Source: Klebsormidium nitens (Eukaryota > Plantae > Klebsormidiophyceae). Taken from it: DNA of 43,476 bases. The DNA lies in contig DF237657.1 in assembly GCA_000708835.1 (NCBI GenBank), forward strand, positions 1-43,476. The letters run 5' to 3'. The position numbers and the translations under genes were made by a program. Positions within the stretch are counted from its first letter, which is position 1. Each line of letters opens with the position of its first letter. Below, one piece after another: positions 1-43,070 of this stretch. The notes beneath the pieces were generated by a model. That model was given only the letters and a program-made list of their open reading frames with translations, was not told the origin of the DNA and made no database searches.

Positions 1-56
1 CATGACCGAATGAATGAAATGACCCGTTGCCAAAATAATGTTTGACAAAAACAACA

Positions 57-1349
57 ATGAACGGGGCTGGGCCTAGCAACCGTCCTGCCAAGCGTCAGAA
101 AACAGGTGATGACTACATCAATCGGCTCGTCGGCCGTGTGAACAAGGAGGAGGGTATGGATGTCGAGTGGGGCAAGTCTCGCTACCACGTCCCGCACCAG
201 TGGGTGTACAACTTCAAGCACACCAAGGATCCCAAGGGTGGTAGCCGCAGACAGGCGAAGATGTGGCCGCACGACACGCCTGAAGGAGAGGATTACAGGA
301 AGCTGGTGCCTATCACGACCCCAGACAAGCTGCGAGACTATATGAGCCTTGCAAGGCGCAACAAACGGCCAGAGGCAGACAGTTACGATGCGTACCTTGC
401 ACGGATAGCAGGCGCCTCTCGTTCCGCGAAACCCGTGCAGAACAAGGGGAACCGAGCTCAAAGTGCCCCCCGCTTTTCGAACCCCGTGCAGAACAGGGGT
501 AACCGAGCTCGAACCAGCTCAGCGAACAACGCCGCGTTAGCTTTGCCTGCGGCTTGGCGGAATGGCAATAACCGTGACAAGAAGCCAAATTCTCAGAACA
601 ACAAATGGGCAAGGCTTCATGTCGCAAACAACACTCGGTCAATGCACAGCAGCCACAACGGTACAAACAATGAGGAGGAAGAGGAGTGTGCAATCTGCGG
701 GGAGCCAGGCACCCTCCTGATCTGCGATCTTTGTGAGCGCGGCTTTCACCTGACGTGCCTCGATCCCCCACTCACCAGCGTTCCTGAAGGTGATTAGTAC
801 TGCCCAGATTGCGAGAAGGAGGGCTCAAATGCGGGGATCCCACCAAGGTCAGTAAACAATTCGCAATCGAATGCGAGTTGGATCGATCCTGATGAAGGGG
901 AGTTCAACAAGCGGAAGCTAGTGAGTGAGGTCAACCAAGCTCTCATGAACGAGAACAAGACGGGGCTCCCCCATGACTTTCAAGCAGTACAAGATGGGCT
1001 TCGCAAAGAGAGACAAGCCGAGATCGACCAACTCCGAAACGAGTTTAGGTCCACCCCTAACGTGAAGAAGAAGCGCACCATCCTTGCCAGGCTGCGGCCA
1101 CTAGGGGACAATATCGAAAACTTGCTTCGAGATCCCAGCCTGACCAACAACAACCGCGCCATGTTCACCCCAAACAAGGGTCTGATAGTGCAGAGGGGTC
1201 GCGATCGTGTGCTGTCTTGGCTGGATGCTCCGGCCAATTCCAGGCCAATGCAGAGCCAGCGGCGGATAACACCCACACCAATCCCAAGACCGAACCAGGC
1301 AAACAATCAAACCAACAGGAAAGGCAAACGGAGAATCAATAACATCTAA
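57..1349 (+). pseudogene. PHD-finger protein interrupted by an in-frame TAG at 795-797
   Basis: CAICGEPGTLLICDLCERGFHLTCLDPPLTSVPEGD*YCPDC is a canonical PHD finger with TAG at the conserved Trp; the frame continues without stops into ORF 921-1349. Confidence 0.85.
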
Positions 1350-5510: not shown

Positions 5511-6392
5511 ATGGAGGAAACCAAGGATGTATCTGGCAAGTGCGCGATTGCAAATGTGGCGCCTCCCCTCTTGGTGGAGCTGTTGCTCAATCACTCGGAC
5601 ATTGGAGTGCCTGCTGTGACCGCGCTTGCTTGCACGTCAACTGGATTCAGCAAAGCATTGGATGAGCTGTGGCCGTCTTTGATGACAGAGTATGCCAAGA
5701 AGTGTCGAGTACCTCTGATAACTAGGCCGCAAACTCATGAGATCCCGGCCGAGCACCTCCAGCGCAAATTCCCCCCGTTAAATCAAATTTGCATCGTGCG
5801 TGCCTCGCATAGGCTCAAAGGCGATGGATACGATCTGAGCTTTGCCTTCCAAGAGGACGTGTCCGAGTGGACGCGCCAGGAAGCATTAATGACCAGGCAC
5901 ATTGCCCGCTACATGTACTGCTTGACCACCCCAGACCTCGAACGCCTCGAAGTATACAACAGAATATTTGGTGAGAGGTGCTACCGCTTCGAAGACGTCC
6001 TAGCGGCAGGCATGCTCCGTTATGGCCGACGCCCTTATGTTGAGCGCCTCCTTCGGAGGCCGGCCCGTTTGCTTATGAAGGACGAGAAGTTTGCAATTCG
6101 CTGGGCCAAGGCTCGGCACTTGCGCCAGCAATTGGCCGTGCCGGGCATCGCTCTGGATGATGGTTCGCTCTGGGAGTACGCAAAAGAGTACACTCGAACG
6201 GATGCTGGGATGAACGAACTCAAGAGGCGCATCCACTTGCACCACTGGTTTGCAGGAGTAGTGGAGCCAGTGGGCGAGCAAGAAGAGTTACGAGTGAAGC
6301 ATCTTCAAAAGGCATACGCTTTCACGGGTGACAAAAAGCTGATCCAAGAAGCCAACAGGATCTTTGCTGATGAATTTTTGCTGGACTACTAG
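5511..6392 (+). CDS. Hypothetical protein, possible F-box-like N-terminus plus XPA-C-like motif
   Basis: PPLLVELLLNH...ALACTS at the N-terminus; IARYMYCLTTPDLERL...YRFEDVLAAGMLRYG resembles the XPA C-terminal pattern. Confidence 0.5.
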   Translation: MEETKDVSGKCAIANVAPPLLVELLLNHSDIGVPAVTALACTSTGFSKALDELWPSLMTEYAKKCRVPLITRPQTHEIPAEHLQRKFPPLNQICIVRASHRLKGDGYDLSFAFQEDVSEWTRQEALMTRHIARYMYCLTTPDLERLEVYNRIFGERCYRFEDVLAAGMLRYGRRPYVERLLRRPARLLMKDEKFAIRWAKARHLRQQLAVPGIALDDGSLWEYAKEYTRTDAGMNELKRRIHLHHWFAGVVEPVGEQEELRVKHLQKAYAFTGDKKLIQEANRIFADEFLLDY

Positions 6393-7226
6393 GGCACGTC
6401 GATCCTTGGGATCTTGAAGGGTGCCGGAGATATTGCGAGAGGGGCAGGAACGTCCGTGTCTTCGGCAGGTGGATAGGTTCTCGGGACGATGTATGTTTTG
6501 ACAAGGGCCGGAAGCGCCCCGCCTATTACTGGCCCAACAATATAGATCCAGATCTCACTCCACGCTTTGCTGTGGGCTTTTCCCGAAGCAGCAATCAAGG
6601 CACCCAAACTGCGAGCAGGATTCACGCTCGTTCCGTCGATAGGAATCAGAGCAAGATGCGCGACTGTGATGGCAGCGGCTATAGCGACAGGCACCATGAG
6701 ACCTAAAACGTGCCGCCCAACATCGTTCACGGGCAGAAGGCCCGTGACTTGGAGGACAGTGGTGACAAGAAGGGCCGTCGCAATGATCTCTGCGAGGAAT
6801 GCCTGCCACAGATGAAACCCCGGCTGCACAATGTTGACCGCCTGATTCGCTGCATACAAGTCATGGTTTGAAACTGCTCGTGCGAGTAGAGCGCCGCATG
6901 TGCAACCTACGATCTGAGCTACAATGTATACCAAACCCGTTAGTACACTGACAGACCGTTGAATGACAAAGGCAATTGTCACGCAAGGATTCAGATGCGC
7001 GCCCGATGCATTCCCGTAGGCAAAGATCAATGCGCCTATGGTCGTGCCAAACACGGTGGCTATACCAAGGGGTGCAAGTGCTGTCCCGTCAGTCGGGCTT
7101 GGCTCATAGTTCAGTGACCACACTGGTCACAATGATGAATAAGAAGAATGTCGATCCCAAGAACTCTGCACCAGCAGCATTGCACAGACGGAGCATCTTG
7201 TTCTTGTGAGCAGTCGTTGAATCCAT
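6389..7226 (-). pseudogene. PIP-like aquaporin (MIP family) with a frameshift near 7111-7116
   Basis: SGAHLNPCVT and HLALIPIDGTSVNPARSLG motifs; TM1 (AGAEFLGSTFFLFII) is encoded from the ATG at 7226 in a different frame. Confidence 0.85.
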
Positions 7227-10468: not shown

Positions 10469-13177
10469 GTTATTACCATTTTCATCGAAAGTGTCGATGC
10501 TCTTGAGCCGTCGATTACATATAGGTACTTATTACCGTTTTCGCCCAAAACGTCGCCCGAACCGGGCGCTTCTCAGGCGATAATACGATAATAATGCCGG
10601 AGTTTAACACCGGCTATCCGCGAACCGCCGGGTTATGACGCCCGGTATTGCAGATACTTCTCTAGGCGCCGCCCGGCTATACTCTGCCGGCCGGACGCCC
10701 CCTTCCAGCAGATCGAAAAGTACGGGCCATCCTGAGGCACTGGAGGTTATTGACATGGTTATAGTTTGCTGCACCGGTGGTCCGATGGCATCCTGGGTGG
10801 TTATTGGGTTGCACTCTCGGGACCCCGAAATGGTTACTTACAAGATATAACCAGCTTGTCTTTGCAGATGTCATGGACGAGAAAATTAACCACGTTTTTT
10901 TCGGGTTAGGACCGACGTCGGGTTATACACCATGCGTCCTCATAACCGAAATATCATGGGTTATGTGCACAACAGGGTGCCCTTTTGGCCATTTTATGCA
11001 CCTTTTCGCTCCGTCCTAAACTTGCCACGATTTCCCTTTTGGCTTACTTTTCTGGTTTTAGGGCAGCGTTTAGGATTCCCTTTTGGTCACAAAAGGTGCT
11101 AAAGGGACGATGGTTTGGGACACTATCTTAATACTCCCTGCTTTTCAAGGTTCCCGTTTGGCCACCAAGAGGTGCTAAAGGGCGCCTAGAACCCTAAATT
11201 TCTAAAGCCTAAATTTCAGGCGGTTTCAAACCTATCAATCGCCTGGAAGCGGTGAATGATGGCGCGCGCTAAGAAAATGAGACATGACGCGCCACTCGTG
11301 AAAGCTGCACGCTCTGGAGATGCCGAGACCTGCAGACAGCTGCTGGAGGAGCATGCAGATGTAGAGGGAGTTCACCGGGCAATCTGGGTGGGTGCAAACA
11401 ATGGACATACCGAGGTCTGCAGGCTGCTTCTGGAAAAAGCAGACGCACCGCTCGTACTCATTGATGGTGCTAGGAATGGGCACACAGATGTCTGCAGGCT
11501 GCTCCTGCAGAATGGAGCGTCCGTGGACACAGTGGATTATGATGATAGTACGGCGCTCATTGTTGGTGCAAGCAGAGGGCACACCGAGGTCTGCAGGCTT
11601 CTGCTGGAGAAGGGAGCGTCTGTGGACGCAGCCAACGAGGATGGAAGGACGGCGCTCTGGGAAGCTGCAAGCNNNNNNNNNNNNNNNNNNNNNNNNNNNN
11701 NNNNNNNNNNNNNNNNNNNNNNNNNNNNNNNNNNNNNNNNNNNNNNNNNNNNNNNNNNNNNNNNNNNNNNNNNNNNNNNNNNNNNNNNNNNNNNNNNNNN
11801 NNNNNNNNNNNNNNNNNNNNNNNNNNNNNNNNNNNNNNNNNNNNNNNNNNNNNNNNNNNNNNNNNNNNNNNNNNNNNNNNNNNNNNNNNNNNNNNNNNNN
11901 NNNNNNNNNNNNNNNNNNNNNNNNNNNNNNNNNNNNNNNNNNNNNNNNNNNNNNNNNNNNNNNNNNNNNNNNNNNNNNNNNNNNNNNNNNNNNNNNNNNN
12001 NNNNNNNNNNNNNNNNNNNNNNNNNNNNNNNNNNNNNNNNNNNNNNNNNNNNNNNNNNNNNNNNNNNNNNNNNNNNNNNNNNNNNNNNNNNNNNNNNNNN
12101 NNNNNNNNNNNNNNNGGGCCGTTCGAAAACACTGAGGTCTGCAGGCTGCTGCTGGAGAGAGGAGCATCTGTGGATGCAGTGGGGCAGGACGGAGGGACAG
12201 CGCTGTGGGAAGCTGCGAGCAGTGGGAACATCGGAATCTGCAGGCTGCTGCTGGAGAAAGGAGCATCTGTGGATGCAGTGGGACAGGACGGAAGAACAGC
12301 GCTGTGGGAAGCTGCGAGCAAAGGGTACATCCGGATCTGCAGGCTGCTGCTGGAGAAGGGAGCATCTGTGAAGGTAGCGGATGAAGACGGGCAGACACCA
12401 TTAGTGGCAGCTGCAGAAGAAGGCCATCTTGACATATTTGAGTTGTTGATGACCAGAGGTGCAGACACCAACTCTGTTCGCATGGGCATCGTCCCTGTTC
12501 TTTGGGACCAGCTTTGTCAGGCCAGGGATGAGCTCCGGGAATGGCGAGCGATACCCTCACAATTGCGAGAAACGATGGTAGAATTTGCAGAGGCAGGAAC
12601 CAAATATCAGAGTGAAAATCCTTGCAAACGGCCCCGCACCGCAGAATCCTGACGAGCAACATCACCAATAAAAACATTACCATGTTCACGTTGGTTTCTG
12701 GTTCAATCCTCTTGCTCCATGAAATTCACGTCATGTGCTAGATGCATTGTGAGATGCTGTTTTGTTTGTGCACCATCATGTTGCCAGCGCTGTTCTGTTG
12801 ACCATATGACACAAGAACCCATAACCGTTCTGACAAAAGTCATAAATATGGAACATGGAACGGTCACCGGGAGCGCAAATCATGATCCTTACTGGTTGCT
12901 TGCATGGTGCATGGCGCTTCCAGTCATGTAATCTTGCAAAAGTATCATGTACCTAAAATCACTTCGTTATGTACATATCTGGATATCCTGGCGTTGCGGA
13001 AGGATGTTCCGGGCAGCGTTCACGTCTCGTTTCACCGTCATGCCATTACAGCCATTGTTTCGGCGGTGGAATTATATGTGGTATATTATATGTTGCTGCA
13101 ATATATGAGCGTCTCTATACGAAATTTTTCACCAACCGGCGGTTTGGCGCGACACTTTCGATGAAAATGGTAATAAT
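10469..13177. other. Segment bounded by inverted copies of a ~30-bp motif and carrying the ankyrin gene (possible non-autonomous element)
   Basis: Identical 27-mer TTATTACCATTTTCATCGAAAGTGTCG at 10470-10496 (+) and 13150-13176 (-); a variant copy at 10528-10558; no target-site duplication seen. Confidence 0.45.
11256..12652 (+). CDS. Ankyrin-repeat protein (99-bp tandem repeats; gap 11673-12115)
   Basis: Repeated DGRTALWEAASxGHxEVCRLLLEKGASVDA units on both sides of the gap. Confidence 0.9.
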
Positions 13178-13181
13178 CAGT

Positions 13182-14190
13182 ATGATGATCAATGTGGAAG
13201 AGGTGAGAGTTACTCGCATCCCCACTGGAAGCGACGGGTTAAGAAAACGACCGTTAGCACTAGACTTGTTTTGCGGAGGTGGTGGAGCGGCCATGGGACT
13301 CTTTACAGCTGGATTTGATGTCCTGGGCTATGATACCAAAGAATAGTGTATATCCGTTTGACTCTGTCAACGAGTGCGCAATGACGGCAGACGTCTCCAA
13401 GGCGGACTTCATCTGGGCATCTCCACCATGCCAACAATTTAGTAGTATCATTCCCACAGCGTACCGTGAAAAATATGGCCACATGTGGCATCATCAGAAC
13501 CTCATAACCCCAATTCGAGAAAAATTGGCACTCAGTGGGAAACTCTACGTGATAGAGAACGTGCAAAACGAGCTGCGAGAACCTGCGATGCTCTGTGGGA
13601 CCATGTTTCAGAACATGAAGGTGTTCAGACAAGTTTGGTCTACACGTAGACCGGAAGTGCAACCACACAGGTAAGAGTCTCGGAAGTCGTTCTCCAATAT
13701 CCCAATCGGTCACAAAGCAGCCCATGGATATCGTCGAAACCGATTCCGGATCGATGGAAGTCCATATAAACCCCGGAGAGTGGAGATGCGAGTACACTAC
13801 CAGGAAAAGTGGAGAATCATCTGGGACAACGGATGCATATTACTTTTCAGCAAGTGGTGTGAGATTCCGATCCATCCGTGAAATCGAGAGATCTGTCAAG
13901 TGCAAGGTGACAGTCTTTGAAGCAGGCCGGTCTCCTCGAACATCTCAAATGTACAAGAGACGCCCTCAAATCGAACAGCAAAATAAAGCTACTGAAATGT
14001 TTCCTATGTACGGGACACCGGGACGAGTACGGGGGACCGTGCAGGAGTGGTCTGATGCAATGCAAATAGATTGGACACAGTCCGGTAAGACGTTCGCTCA
14101 AGCAATACCACCAGCCTATTCTGAATACATAGGACGACAAGCTCTGGAGCAACTAGGCTACGTACTAGATTACACCCCCCCCCCCCTAAT
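13182..14190 (+). pseudogene. C5-cytosine DNA methyltransferase with an inserted MBD domain (about 13769-13897); two frameshifts (about 13340 and 13630)
   Basis: Motif I LDLFCGGGG, motif IV ASPPCQ, motif VI YVIENV, then MBD PGEWRCEYTTRKSGESSGTTDAYYFSASGVRFRSIREI, then AMQIDW...AQAIPPAYSEYIGRQ (motifs IX-X of the short phage-type family). The 3' end is uncertain because of a C12 run. Confidence 0.85.
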
Positions 14191-22509: not shown

Positions 22510-22995
22510 CTTATTTACAGTTTTCGTCGAGAGTGTCGCCTGAGATATGTGACGCTTGAAGATCTGAACGTGCGTTTAAACCCCCCTGAAAATCCTCAGA
22601 AGGTACTGTATGTTCTAATCATGAGCATCACTTGTTACCGACTGGAAGAGTGGCTAGTACTGTCCTAAGCGTGCCCCGTTAACATACGGTATGAGACCTC
22701 CATCAAAAGGCCCATCTTTGAGCTTCCCTGAAGCGCGATTGCACTCTTTGCAATGTACCTGCGTCGCTTGGATTTGGGCTGGAGGTCTTTGGCATGGCAT
22801 AGGAGTATCAGTACTTGTCCACAAAAAGGAACAGTATTCTTCAGTACCCAGTTACTCTGGTCAGGCTCTGCCTACCAAGGACGCTGGGCGGCTGAGGGAT
22901 AGCCAGTGAACTCTGGTATTATTGCTATTTATCGCCTTTTCTTGTAATCCCCGTTACATAATAGGGGCGACAGTTTGGGCGAAAATGGTAATAAG
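22510..22995. other. About 485-bp segment bounded by inverted copies of the same ~30-bp motif family (MITE-like)
   Basis: Degenerate (+) copy at 22510-22540 and (-) copy at 22965-22995. Confidence 0.4.
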
Positions 22996-23340
22996 CATGT
23001 TGCTGGGGTTTTCAAAACCATTGACAGCAGTAGCTGTGTATGCAGGTATAACCCAGAAATCGGTGCCTCCTCAAATCACTGCGGGGCCAGCAAATGAGGA
23101 GGAACAGGTATGTAAAGAATTTGATCTTGCAATGTAGTCCGGAATATCTTGAAGCACACCGATTGGAGATGAAGGTACTTCAGTGATAACCACCTGCTGA
23201 TAATTGATTTCTATCTCCACAGGATGCATCTTGAACGTGTGAATGATTGCGTGCCAGGTTGTAGGCATTGGGATGCATACAAGTTTTGGAAAAGGTCCTG
23301 GGATAACACGTTTTGGGAGGAAAAGCAGGTGGATTAAGGG

Positions 23341-24311: not shown

Positions 24312-25436
24312 ATGCTGCCGGCTTTAGATGTGTTTTCCGGGATTGGTGGATTTGCAAGGGCACTCCAAGGGATTGCAACGGTCAAGAAATTCTGTGACAT
24401 TGATCCGTCCGCTCGGGCATGTATACGGCGAAACATGGATAGGGGGCTGCTCGAGGAGGCAGAGATTGAGACAGACATCAGGAACCTCGAGGGGTCAAAA
24501 GACGTTGAAGTGATCGCTGCAGGGATCCCGTGCCTCGGTTTCTCGCCGCTAGGGCTAAAGGCAGGTTTTGAGCATATCCAAACGAAGCTATTCTACGAGC
24601 TTCTCAGGGTCATTGACGAGTGTGATCCCCAGCTCATATTTCTCGAGAACGTGCCAAACATTGTCCTCCACGGCATGCACACGGTGGTCGATGAATTGCA
24701 CGAGAGGAGGGGGTATGATCTGTCCTGGGTCCTTCTGCCCGCTTATGCAGTTGGGGCATACCACACCCGGCTCCGGTGGTTCTGCCTGGCCAAAAAACCG
24801 AATCTCAAGCTGACTTGGGACAATCTGTCCTTCGTACCACACTGCTTTGACACCAAGGACCCGCCGCCCAGGATGATTGGGAGAGACGATCCGGGGTGGC
24901 TTGAGAGGGCAAAGAGATGCTTTCTTTTGGGGAACAGCATCGTGCCTTGCGCAGCCCGTCTCGCCTTCTTTCTGCTGGCAAGTGGTTTCAAGCAGGGAGA
25001 TATTGCTGCACCGACCCTGGTCATGGGGGAACCAGGCCCGGCCCTACGCACGGTGGTGGATGAGACAGCCCCTGGCTTTGTCTTTCCCCGGTGGGGAGGA
25101 GTCGACTCGAAAAGTGTCTACAGCATCCCGGTGATGCACTTTAGGAGGCCCGAGCTGCAGTTGCAACTGTTCCAAAGGCCGCAGCTCGAGGTGCTTCTTA
25201 CAGAAAAGGTCACGTCTCCCGTCATTTATTCGCAATTGCTGCGATTGTGGAGCACCCCTCGTGCCGGTTGCACTGGAAGCAGTCGCATCCTTACTGAGAG
25301 GAGCAGCCGAGATCTCCCGACGCAGGTCAAGTTTGAGGTGGGAACTCCGGAACATGAGAGAAAGGGCCAGCTGAATCCAGATTGGGTTGAAGAGGTTCTG
25401 ATGGGTTATCCAAGAGGTTGGACTTGCTATAAATGA
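24312..25436 (+). CDS. C5-cytosine DNA methyltransferase, intact, with apparently permuted motif order
   Basis: DVFSGIGG (I), GIPC (IV), FLENV (VI), HTRLRWF (VIII), LLGNSIVP (X), then WSTP...LNPDWVEEVLMGYPRGWT (IX-like) at the C-terminus. Confidence 0.92.
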   Translation: MLPALDVFSGIGGFARALQGIATVKKFCDIDPSARACIRRNMDRGLLEEAEIETDIRNLEGSKDVEVIAAGIPCLGFSPLGLKAGFEHIQTKLFYELLRVIDECDPQLIFLENVPNIVLHGMHTVVDELHERRGYDLSWVLLPAYAVGAYHTRLRWFCLAKKPNLKLTWDNLSFVPHCFDTKDPPPRMIGRDDPGWLERAKRCFLLGNSIVPCAARLAFFLLASGFKQGDIAAPTLVMGEPGPALRTVVDETAPGFVFPRWGGVDSKSVYSIPVMHFRRPELQLQLFQRPQLEVLLTEKVTSPVIYSQLLRLWSTPRAGCTGSSRILTERSSRDLPTQVKFEVGTPEHERKGQLNPDWVEEVLMGYPRGWTCYK

Positions 25437-31046: not shown

Positions 31047-31984
31047 ATGTCCGCAAGCTGCCGAATAACAGATACAAGCCCGAGTGGCAAGTATGTCAGG
31101 TACGCAGAGGTGATTGGTAGAGGTTCGTACAAGATTGTGCACAGAGGCTTTGACAGAGAGCTGGGGATTGAGGTTGCATGGAGTAAGATTGTACTCAGCA
31201 AGTTGGAAGTGAACGAGGAATTCCACGAGCAGATCCAACGGGAGGTTGACCTCCTCAAGATCATAAGATGCAGTAATGTCGTCGAGCTCCTTGATGCATG
31301 GTTTGATCCGGAGCGCAATGAGTTCCACATTGTGACAGAGCTCTTTCCCAGCGGAAGTCTGAAGGACTATCTAAAGCGCCATGGCCATATAGCTCTACCT
31401 GTTGTGAAAAGGTGGACACGGACCCTGCTGGAGGGTCTTGCGTATCTGCATGCGCAGAACCCGCCAATCGTTCACAGAGATGTCAAGTGCGACAACATCT
31501 TCATCAGAGGAGATGTGGGACAAGTCAAACTAGGCCCGGTGACCTTGGCCTGTCGACCCTCAAAAGCAGGTCCTCCATGTCTAGCGTTGTTGGGACACCA
31601 GAATTCATGGCCGTGGAGATGTTCAACTCTGACTATGACGAGAGGGTTGATGTCTACTCCCTTGGAACGTGTGTCCTGGAGATGACAACACTGGAATACC
31701 CCTTTGCAGAGTGCAAAAACATTGCACAGGTCTACCGCAAAGTGATGGAAAGAAAACCGCCAGACTCTCTCAAGCAGGTTCAAGCCCCCGAGCTGAAGGC
31801 CTTTATCACAAGGTGCCTTGCTGGCCGTTCCAGCAGGCCCACAGCCCAGGAGCTCCTGGACGACCCTCTGCTAAGGGATCTGGGGGAACCGCGGCCATCT
31901 TGGTCAGAGCATGAGGCAATTCTTGTCAAGCTCGAACCCATGAGAAAGGAATCAAAACCACTGAGACTCTCCTGCTGTTTCTGA
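31047..31984 (+). pseudogene. WNK: WNK (with-no-lysine) Ser/Thr kinase with an apparent 5-nt insertion at 31533-31537
   Basis: GRGSYKIV (Lys in subdomain I), EVAW, HRDVKCDNIFI; removing GGCCC restores VKLGDLGLST...GTPEFMA. Confidence 0.88.
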
Positions 31985-40745: not shown

Positions 40746-42836
40746 TCACCCGGAGATCATGTGCTCGAGAAGAGTCTCGCGCAACGAATCCAGGTTTGCA
40801 GGCTTTACCAAGACGCCAGCCATTCCAACTTCCAAGCACCGGTCAAACGTTGCAGATCTCTGGTCAGCGGTCAGGGCAACAACGGTCCGTGGCCTCTTCG
40901 ATTCTGGCAAGGCTGCAATCCTCCTCATAGTCTCAAAGCCGTCCCAGCCAGGCATGGTGAGATCCAAGAAGCAAAAAACGAATCTTGTCAACTCCATTTC
41001 CAGCAGCCGCAAGCAGGCCTCCCCGGATTCTACTGTCTTTGGAGAGCACCCCAGCTTGCGGAGCATCTTGGCAGTTACAAGACGGTTCACACTGTTGTCG
41101 TCCACAACAAGCACACGCATGCCTTTGAGGCTGCCTACAGACTCACTCCGCTTGATGATGGTCCGTTCCACGTCATGACTTACCCGCCCAAGGTGGATAT
41201 AGAACGATGCAGTTGTTCCTAGCCCAATACCCGGGCTTTGGAGCCACACGGCTCCTCCCATGAGGCGTGCCAGGTGTCTGCAGATCGAGAGACCCAGTCC
41301 CATCCCTCCAGCTTTGCGCCCAGAATCCAGCTGTCGGAATCGCTCACAGAGGCTGCCTATTGCTGAAGCTTCGACCCCAATGCCATCATCAACCACGTCC
41401 ACTCGAATCCGGTGTGTCGTACTGGTGGGTGGAGCCTCCTCCTCCCAGACTCGAAATGTTATCGTCGACTTTGTAAACTTGAGTGCATTGTTCAGGAGAT
41501 TCAAACACATCTGCATCGTCCGCTTTGCATCTCCGTCCACATATTGAGGCAAGTTATTGGCTTCTACAGTGAATCTGTATCCAGCCTCCCTTGCCATGGG
41601 CTCTACCATGCGAGATGCCTCACGAACCAGGTTCGTCAGATCAAACGGTGCCGTTCGAAGCTGAAAGTCCCCTCGATTGATCCGTGAAACATCCAGAACG
41701 TCGTCGATAAGAACGGAAAGGAGTCCTGCACTCGTGGAGATGGTATTGACCATCTCCTGGTCCCCTCTCGAAAGCGAGTTGCTGTGCTGCAGCACCGATG
41801 CTATGGCCAAGACGGCATGGAGAGGGGTCCGCATCTCGTGGCTCACCACCGCAAAAAACTCTTCGCGTGCTTTGATCCCCGTCTCAGCTGCCAAGCGCGC
41901 CTCCTTGAGCTCACGGTTCTGGGCCAGCAGATCGCGCAGGATGTGAGCGTGAGAGATTGCAACGCTGATCTGACTGGTTGCAATCTCCAAGACCTCCCAA
42001 TCGTAATCGGTCCAGTTGGAGTCCTTGGCGAGTGCAAGGATGTACTTCTGTGGTAATTGCTGCATTTCGCCCTGGAATGTAAGCTGAGGCAACACCAGAG
42101 ATACCGCATAAGCTCCATGGCGGTGGCCAGATCCAAGCAGGCACGTCCTCGGATCCAGGGGAACTGGTCCCTGAGATGAGATGGTTGTTTGCACCTCGTC
42201 CAAGCCGATCGGAATGACAGTACGGCTCCCCTTCAGTGAACCAACGGCACTCACCACATGCATAGCGTCGGGATGTGGACCAGTCGACCAGACAGCACAA
42301 TCAGTCAGGTTCAAGACCTTGGAAAGCTCCACAATTGTAGTCTCCAAGATGGTCATGGTGTCCAGAGACGAGTAGATGCCCACTGAGAGCATGCGCACAC
42401 TGTGTGTAGCAGCATATTTGCGCCTTAGCAATCCGACCTCTTGATCCAACTCATCTGCTTTCAACTTCAAGTAATGCTCTCGTTCTCGCAATCGCAAGAA
42501 GCGAGGAATCTCCCAGAACAGGAATACTGTCGTAACACCAGAAACCAGTGCCGTGAGACATTTGGCTAGGGTACTACGTGCCACAGACGAATAAGTATCC
42601 ATGAGGATCAACTGGCGGGCTGATAGCAGGTGTGTGCAGCCACAGAACAGAATAAAGAGCACGAATTGCACGAGTGTCCCTTTCTGAGGAAGCTCCTTGA
42701 ACTTGAGGCCAAAGTATATGAGCTCGATAGGGATGGAAAAGTAGGCCACCGAAATGATGGTGTCTGCCCACGCTTGGAGTTGCCCAAGGCTGTGGGAATA
42801 CGTCCACATTCTACCGAGGCACGCACATTGAACCAT
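40746..42836 (-). CDS. ETR1: Ethylene receptor, ETR1-type hybrid histidine kinase (ethylene-binding TM domain, GAF, HisKA, HATPase, receiver), intronless, 696 aa
   Basis: MVQCACL (Cys4/Cys6), ADTIISVAYFSIPIELIYF, FILFCGCTHL (Cu-binding Cys/His), SHEMRTPLH, NLLNNALKFT, DDGIG, GLGLSIC, VLVVDDN...FLDLTMP...LVKP. Confidence 0.95.
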   Translation of the reverse strand: MVQCACLGRMWTYSHSLGQLQAWADTIISVAYFSIPIELIYFGLKFKELPQKGTLVQFVLFILFCGCTHLLSARQLILMDTYSSVARSTLAKCLTALVSGVTTVFLFWEIPRFLRLREREHYLKLKADELDQEVGLLRRKYAATHSVRMLSVGIYSSLDTMTILETTIVELSKVLNLTDCAVWSTGPHPDAMHVVSAVGSLKGSRTVIPIGLDEVQTTISSQGPVPLDPRTCLLGSGHRHGAYAVSLVLPQLTFQGEMQQLPQKYILALAKDSNWTDYDWEVLEIATSQISVAISHAHILRDLLAQNRELKEARLAAETGIKAREEFFAVVSHEMRTPLHAVLAIASVLQHSNSLSRGDQEMVNTISTSAGLLSVLIDDVLDVSRINRGDFQLRTAPFDLTNLVREASRMVEPMAREAGYRFTVEANNLPQYVDGDAKRTMQMCLNLLNNALKFTKSTITFRVWEEEAPPTSTTHRIRVDVVDDGIGVEASAIGSLCERFRQLDSGRKAGGMGLGLSICRHLARLMGGAVWLQSPGIGLGTTASFYIHLGRVSHDVERTIIKRSESVGSLKGMRVLVVDDNSVNRLVTAKMLRKLGCSPKTVESGEACLRLLEMELTRFVFCFLDLTMPGWDGFETMRRIAALPESKRPRTVVALTADQRSATFDRCLEVGMAGVLVKPANLDSLRETLLEHMISG

Positions 42837-43070
42837 GCTTGAACCATGCAGTATGAGTAGGTGTTTTGTCTGAGCAACTGGACGCGAAGCCACACTGGCC
42901 CCAAACACTGGCCCCTAAACTGGCCCCCAAATGCATGGCATGTAACCAAAGTTGAAAGAATATAACCATGCGGCTCATGTGGGGCAGCACCCTGTAACCA
43001 TTCGTACTCCTTTCAAAACACCCATGACACACAGTGTAACCATGGCTATAACCTTAGACCCGCTTTGTAA

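Follow-up and report, generated by a model that had tools for sequence, protein, structure and literature searches.

A methyl-CpG-binding domain inside a compact phage-type DNA methyltransferase: a frameshifted gene from Klebsormidium nitens and its relatives

An interrupted methyltransferase gene carrying a methyl-CpG-binding domain

Contig DF237657.1 of the alga Klebsormidium nitens (assembly GCA_000708835.1), the whole 43,476 nucleotides of which are referred to below as the window, carries at positions 13182-14182 of the forward strand one compact phage-type cytosine-C5 methyltransferase gene, spread over three reading frames and enclosing a methyl-CpG-binding domain (MBD). This combination of a reader and a writer of DNA methylation in one protein is real, recurrent and apparently undescribed, the window copy being a pseudogene representative of a family for which intact natural homologs exist. 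A previous sequence-only reading had described the gene as a short phage-type C5 methyltransferase with two frameshifts, and both breaks, which we sized by comparison with intact homologs, recur in contigs assembled separately from sequencing runs of one sample. The gene is laid out as follows (all on the + strand):

13182..13343, N-terminal piece with the S-adenosylmethionine-binding motif I (PHROG 363 DNA methyltransferase, E 1.4e-5; tblastn with homolog P0001, 56% identity)
from 13263, motif I, DLFCGGGG, in the first frame of the N-terminal piece
13344..13350, break 1: TAG stop and net loss of 2 nt relative to intact homologs
13351..13629, catalytic piece with motifs IV and VI and the start of motif VIII (PF00145, E 0.006)
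13420-13431, motif IV, SPPC
13555-13563, motif VI, ENV
13621-13629, start of motif VIII, VFR
13630..13633, break 2: net loss of 17 nt, removing HRLFESN and with it the second motif VIII arginine
13634..13690, minimal variable region, N-terminal half (C-x-H...SLG), common to insert-free phage enzymes
13769..13897, MBD (Pfam, MBD2 alignment, Foldseek, VIA-align)
13997..14182, minimal variable region, C-terminal half (MFPMYG...RGTVQEWSDAMQIDW), together with motifs IX-X
14096-14113, motif X-like AQAIPP
14175-14186 (feature to 14189), poly-C tract; TAA at 14187 out of frame, last frame open to 14839

Motif numbers are those of M.HhaI-type enzymes. The catalytic piece shares 72 of 93 residues with homolog P0005 and 69 of 93 with P0004, and the last piece 46 of 61 with both. 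The C-x-H element reads CNH (13658-13666), Cys170 in P0001 numbering being present in at least 90% of our alignment of relatives (A1); a W..AMQIDW element follows MFPMYG in the third frame, between the MBD and AQAIPP.

Both breaks, as well as the junction between methyltransferase and MBD, are crossed without indels by single contigs in four of the four sequencing runs examined. These runs represent one sample, which may be the source of the window DNA, so that a scaffold error is excluded, although the runs lack biological independence. In addition to the two breaks, three codons have been lost in frame right after ENVQ by comparison with intact homologs. The length of the poly-C tract differs in one of the four runs (X2), and a frame change there is an uncertain third lesion.

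Judging from its sequence, the window copy is very likely dead. Both motif VIII arginines, like the catalytic cysteine and ENV, are invariant in all 24 rows of alignment A1, and the second of these arginines is deleted here, which argues that this copy is inactive; an intact R-x-R in one open frame is found in the intact homologs and is missing from the window copy. The sequence-only reading had noted that the second frameshift appears to delete the HRLF part of motif VIII and had regarded the copy as probably dead: the loss proves to extend over HRLFESN, and the verdict is strengthened by the invariance of the missing residue.

It is hardly credible that assembly or annotation created the fusion. 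The window does contain four N gaps, and a K. nitens gene model of the same family, GAQ92615, is itself chimeric. However, the junction is unchanged in single contigs from all four runs, and uninterrupted Logan and JGI proteins have the same colinear layout. We therefore rejected misassembly of separate genes, a possibility that the sequence-only reading had raised.

The inserted domain

The domain at 13769..13897 is a true MBD, in which the fold and the four canonical contact residues are kept. It matches PF01429 at 13775-13891 (E 2.6e-6; 27.4 bits for a cut-off of 21), and its best sequence match in the PDB is MBD2 (E 2.5e-7), with 48-50% identity over 42-44 columns. The arginine, aspartate, tyrosine, and arginine encoded at 13802, 13832, 13838, and 13868 align to R24, D34, Y36, and R46 of chicken MBD2 (2ky8), which are R22, D32, Y34, and R44 in the common MBD numbering used hereafter. 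The available text of two papers documents the importance of these residues (PMC3315304, PMC6023120), and the four MeCP2-type contacts recognized in the sequence-only reading are thus all present.

Structural comparisons point the same way. When the predicted model of segment 13715-13993 (pLDDT, predicted local distance difference test, 74.9) is submitted to Foldseek, all listed rows to rank 35 are MBD-family chains (MBD1-4, MeCP2, AtMBD5/6). VIA-align places AtMBD6, MBD4, MBD2, and MeCP2 in the lead with modest Z scores of 5.0-3.9 (AtMBD6: Z 5.0, root-mean-square deviation (rmsd) 2.5, 47 residues aligned). Profile and structure searches, proposed earlier as a check of the MBD fold, both recover it. 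No second MBD was detected in the window, where a profile of the insert of related proteins (group A, see below) matched this gene only, and a search for the MBD donor, restricted to the P0004 insert, matched P0004 alone.

Relatives carrying the insert

Protein searches identified 13 further representatives in which an insert occupies the same site (group A). Eight of the 13 pass the Pfam cut-off for an MBD, three have subthreshold scores, and two give no match; all four reader residues are in exact register in nine, some of which are only ~50% identical to one another. P0132 keeps the four residues with a shorter loop, and R44 is kept in 13 of 13 while other residues vary. Motifs I, IV, VI, VIII, and X are complete in seven, and five (P0001, P0002, P0003, P0007, and P0128) combine complete motifs with all four reader residues; members missing an end may reflect decay or gene-calling. 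Intact orthologs, the search for which had been suggested from the sequence alone, were thus found; the named relatives are gene models of K. nitens and Chromochloris.

The K. nitens model, GAQ92615 (P0123), belongs to the cluster of P0003, a protein ~60% identical to the window pieces. It is the nearest named relative and is a different copy from the window gene. It is a rearranged chimera, in which the MBD-methyltransferase is partly duplicated and joined to a HIT hydrolase that forms a separate gene in JGI contigs, and it probably represents a viral locus in decay whose parts were wrongly joined in the gene model. The Chromochloris model is P0134, from C. zofingiensis (Chromochloris zofingiensis).

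A sister set of 24 proteins of ~340-490 aa (group B), one of whose genes lies on a contig (L011) of a giant-virus metagenome-assembled genome, carries an insert of ~100 aa at the group-A site. When proteins are ranked with the profile of the group-A insert, 21 of these 24 come out ahead of all insert-free ones (E 0.001-1.1). In an hhalign comparison of group-A and group-B inserts, the score is 29.6 over only 22 columns, and none of 30 shuffles exceeds 14.9. Conservation is highest at the RS-x-x-E helix start. These signals are weak but would fit a degenerate MBD as the group-B insert.

Other rearrangements were observed in this methyltransferase family. At its N terminus, P0185 from group B bears a zf-CW finger (E 7.7e-10), a histone-mark reader and the second chromatin reader joined to these enzymes. 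Four relatives (P0011, P0012, P0130, and P0131) reach ~450 aa, and P0011 consists of the compact methyltransferase doubled in tandem in one chain. Group-A contigs were absent from the at least 179 loci recovered by scanning IMG/VR (queries A2, P0003, P0132, and P0008) and metagenomes (query P0004), as judged with the insert profile; the ESM Atlas returned compact methylase clusters only.

Insertion site and parent family

Most relatives are phage and metagenome proteins of ~210-240 aa. Among 270 relatives examined, 249 have both motif VIII and the IPP of motif X, and the spacing between the two is 40-79 aa in 201 of them; it rises to ~120-180 aa in insert-bearing proteins. Actinophage methyltransferases match P0003 in two pieces flanking the insert, and residues on both sides of it (Cys170 before; Gly286, Gly293, Trp298, and Ala301 after) are common to insert-free phage proteins. 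In the P0003 model (pLDDT 89; predicted template-modelling score 0.76), the MBD is well formed, linkers with a pLDDT of 51-57 lie at residues 181-200 and 271-280, and the counterpart of 13997..14182 packs on the methyltransferase core.

Because the spacing between motifs VIII and X is tiny in relatives and the flanking elements are shared with insert-free proteins, sequences and model indicate that the MBD is an addition, on flexible linkers, into a loop of the minimal variable region. It lies in the target-recognition domain (TRD) interval, but no full TRD has been replaced. The sequence-only reading had put the MBD "in place of" a TRD. This wording has to be abandoned, as the phage parents have a tiny variable region whose elements are kept around the insert, and replacement of a full TRD was rejected on the same grounds.

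The position of the insert nevertheless raises the possibility, which is the strong form of the sequence-only reading, that the MBD itself serves as TRD, reading the methylated strand and steering maintenance or self-reinforcing CpG methylation: it is located between motifs VIII and IX-X, where a TRD usually stands, and it has kept its four contact residues. We find this improbable. The enzyme's own variable-region elements remain on both sides, the linkers are of low confidence, and Pfam scans of homologs of 280-389 aa reveal none of the accessory domains of DNMT1/CMT enzymes (BAH, RFTS, chromo). Moreover, an MBD occupies the major groove at the very CpG whose base must flip.

The methyltransferase part has a C5-methyltransferase fold. 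The P0003 model aligns to DNMT3B, MET1, M.HhaI, and M.MpeI with Z scores of 15-16 (rmsd 3.4-5.0; 201-230 residues aligned), and the top 19 VIA-align rows are all C5 methyltransferases (Z 16.1-10.7), the next row having a Z of 8.6. DNMT3B leads (Z 16.1, 13% identity) with MET1, M.HhaI, and others within 1, and DNMT3 is absent from the 60 sequence matches listed out of 81. With PF00145 (cut-off 22 bits), the window piece scores 16.5 bits, P0001-P0005 11-14 bits and P0134 34.9, and most group-B proteins exceed 22. For dinucleotide composition, we examined 100 relative-bearing viral loci with a minimum length of 8 kb: the median CpG odds ratio is 1.18, with values below 0.8 in nine of the 100. As these loci exhibit no general depletion in CpG, GpC or CpC, composition offers no clue to the specificity of the parent enzyme.

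A tree was built from 208 insert-free columns (fast search, SH-aLRT (Shimodaira-Hasegawa-like approximate likelihood ratio test) support only, midpoint-rooted). Its rows comprise 12 group-A proteins (P0272 added; P0134, P0010, and P0153 left out), 14 of the 24 group-B proteins and 35 of the ~175 short proteins. The 27 insert-bearing rows split from the 35 short relatives with an SH-aLRT of 98.4, and the window gene stands beside P0004 and P0005. The simplest reading, although not a proven one, is that the MBD was acquired once, with divergence thereafter.

What the fused domain may do

We see about an even chance that, in the intact relatives, the MBD tethers a weak compact writer at mCpG-rich DNA, where neighbouring cytosines are methylated. 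The MBD would dock on methyl-CpG-rich DNA, and docking would raise the local concentration of the small enzyme, which would then methylate nearby cytosines picked by its own small variable region. During infection, the likeliest docking surface would be the CG-methylated chromatin of the host. Catalysis on DNA is predicted for the intact relatives because motifs I, IV, VI, VIII, and X are complete and the fold is that of a C5 methyltransferase; a preference for methyl-CpG is predicted because R22, D32, Y34, and R44 are kept. Similarly, sequence and model suggest that the enzyme acts next to the bound site and not on it, as the MBD is attached by two low-confidence linkers and the small variable region of the enzyme itself is retained. 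Any feedback loop, self-reinforcing spreading or maintenance would require that the product of the enzyme be itself mCpG.

Host chromatin is a plausible docking surface because K. nitens gene bodies are CG-methylated: the available text of PMC5890265 reports mCG on active gene bodies, and CHG and CHH methylation on silent transposons, in this alga. Use of an MBD by a selfish element also has a precedent, namely CopiaMBD retrotransposons (PMC6673714, available text).

Several observations weigh against tethering by methyl-CpG recognition. The position of MBD2 Lys32 (K30 in the common numbering) is a threonine in the window (13826) and is never lysine in the nine in-register homologs, which have Thr, Gln, His or Arg, while K30 is grouped with R22, Y34, and R44 as the 5-methylcytosine (5mC) pocket in the available text of PMC6023120. 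Three of the 13 group-A proteins (P0009, P0129, and P0153) have lost reader residues. The group-B insert has no listed Pfam MBD match (for one protein, two families were not displayed), and its Tyr34 position is altered, so that the insert has there been retained without the canonical pocket. On the enzymatic side, the intact homologs score only 11-15 bits with PF00145, below the cut-off, and no activity or specificity data on the phage parent family were found in the literature. The group-B giant-virus contig is not depleted in CpG (odds 1.27). Finally, a quick tree built on the N-terminal core only left groups A and B unresolved, with the divergent P0134 apart.

Part of this evidence is expected if the MBD is instead a methylation-blind clamp on DNA or CpG, giving affinity and processivity to an enzyme that methylates the viral genome de novo. 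The variable region of the parent is tiny, group B retains a weakly homologous insert best conserved at the RS-x-x-E helix start, and R44 persists throughout group A amid varying residues while K30 is lost. However, nine of the 13 group-A proteins keep R22, D32, Y34, and R44 in register, although some of them are only ~50% identical, and a generic clamp is not expected to retain Tyr34 and Asp32. We regard such a clamp as possible but on the whole unlikely.

A further alternative is that the family acts mainly as a reader or mask, covering mCpG on viral or host DNA against MBD silencing factors of the host, with weak or incidental catalysis. The low Pfam methylase scores are compatible with it, and so is the existence of phage C5 methyltransferase clades with altered motifs VIII-X and little or no activity (PMC8256090, available text), which may or may not belong to the present family. 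Yet alignment A1 shows no variation at the catalytic cysteine, ENV or either motif VIII arginine, and we deem this explanation very improbable.

Genomic context

Returning to the window as a whole, its content fits what would be a giant-virus insert undergoing decay in the genome of a methylating eukaryote, the host being likely a green alga. A Pfam scan of 34 of the 157 listed open reading frames (ORFs) detected genes typical of nucleocytoplasmic large DNA viruses (NCLDV), namely TFIIB, TBP, TFIIS, mRNA triphosphatase, YqaJ, KilA-N, and EsV-1-7. Further matches are RING, ankyrin, TPR, a split kinase, an aquaporin, an ethylene receptor, and a second C5 methyltransferase; capsid, PolB, and A32 are absent among the scanned ORFs. 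The region is dense in intron-poor NCLDV-type genes showing decay, its CpG odds ratio is 0.73, and that of CpA/TpG is 1.24. Ten window ORFs have no exact match in the protein collection. Run contig assemblies total 72-104 Mb.

The second methyltransferase is located as follows:

24312-25436, +, C5 methyltransferase of conventional length, apparently intact, without MBD (PF00145, E 6e-28)

A functional link between it and the MBD-bearing gene was considered and rejected, as intact group-A queries miss it by tblastn.

Other features were observed along the viral region. An ORF at 42-797 (+) ends in a PHD finger, another chromatin-reader domain; an aquaporin (MIP) gene lies at 6389-7123 (-); and a protein kinase, WNK-like by its motif, runs over two overlapping frames at 31047-31984 (+) and is another decayed gene. 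At 40746-42908 (-), an uninterrupted ORF encodes a 720-aa plant-type ethylene receptor (ETR1_N, GAF, HisKA, HATPase, receiver), which may be a virus-carried hormone receptor. A repeated motif, CGACA...GAAAATGGTAATAA, stands directly upstream of gene starts at 13150-13180, 10470-10496 (-), and 22964-22997 and is a candidate viral promoter. Many further contigs from the sequencing runs described above also match 13001-13070.

Novelty and implications

No MBD inside a C5 methyltransferase is described in the literature that we found, in agreement with the sequence-only reading, which knew of no description of this architecture; supplementary domain tables and the subscription literature, for example Iyer et al. 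2011, could mention one. No publication on giant viruses and methyl-CpG-binding viral methyltransferases was found either, and the available text of 10.64898/2026.10.09.758095 does not mention an MBD, nor does that of 10.1101/2021.11.30.470311 describe one inside a C5 methyltransferase.

Feedback between reading and writing of 5mC is central to epigenetic memory. To our knowledge, 5mC feedback systems work via separate proteins or histone marks; a single enzyme of ~340 aa with a canonical methyl-CpG reader makes direct feedback on the DNA mark testable, with five intact homologs at hand. In a more speculative scenario, which we doubt more than we believe, green-algal giant viruses grafted a host MBD into a minimal phage methyltransferase, producing a one-protein reader-writer that spreads mCG or non-CG marks. 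Such an enzyme would dock on host mCG gene bodies and rewrite host chromatin during infection, adding either more mCG (positive feedback) or the non-CG marks that these algae use for silencing. It would be a self-propagating methylation system of very small size (~340 aa) and a possible tool as a compact methyl-directed writer. It would also mean that giant viruses actively engage the host methylation system by which they are silenced once integrated. The window copy itself is a relic, the value of which is to point to the family.

Comparison with known systems

The closest known enzymes are the compact phage C5 methyltransferases (PHROG 363; for example, those annotated in mycobacteriophages Courthouse, U2, and Switzer), which have the same core at ~45% identity and share ASPPC, ENV, RHRLFE, AIPPAY, and the small variable-region elements, but lack the insert and belong to viruses of bacterial hosts. 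Another set of phage C5 methyltransferases is characterized by a TET/JBP neighbour gene and GpC specificity (PMC8256090, available text); no TET was found among the 34 window ORFs scanned.

DNMT1- and CMT-type enzymes have a large TRD. DNMT1/MET1 and CMT3/ZMET2 resemble the present enzymes in their C5-methyltransferase fold (Z ~15) and possibly in the logic of a reader guiding a writer. Their companion domains are BAH, RFTS, CXXC or chromo domains according to a DNMT survey, the available text of which contains no occurrence of an MBD (PMC12344493). Among viral proteins, the best structural match is the C5 methylase of Pithovirus LCPAC201 (A0A481Z4Z4, E 4e-15). The orphan DNMTs of giant viruses and giant endogenous viral elements (GEVEs), too, are virus-borne C5 methyltransferases left in host genomes. 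They generally lack companion domains (PMC12344493), those of GEVEs are uncharacterised (PMC11244446), and the available texts of both papers describe no MBD insert in them.

Canonical MBD proteins (MBD2, MBD1, MeCP2, and MBD4; AtMBD5/6) are alike in fold and in R22, D32, Y34, R44, and S45. In contrast to them, the window domain lacks Lys30, its structural match is limited to a core of ~44 residues, and it sits within an enzyme, whereas canonical MBD proteins recruit co-repressors. Lastly, CopiaMBD (PMC6673714) and DNMT-bearing retrotransposons (PMC5890265) are selfish elements with a captured reader or writer; according to the available texts, however, reader and writer there belong to different elements, whereas the family described here joins them in one protein.
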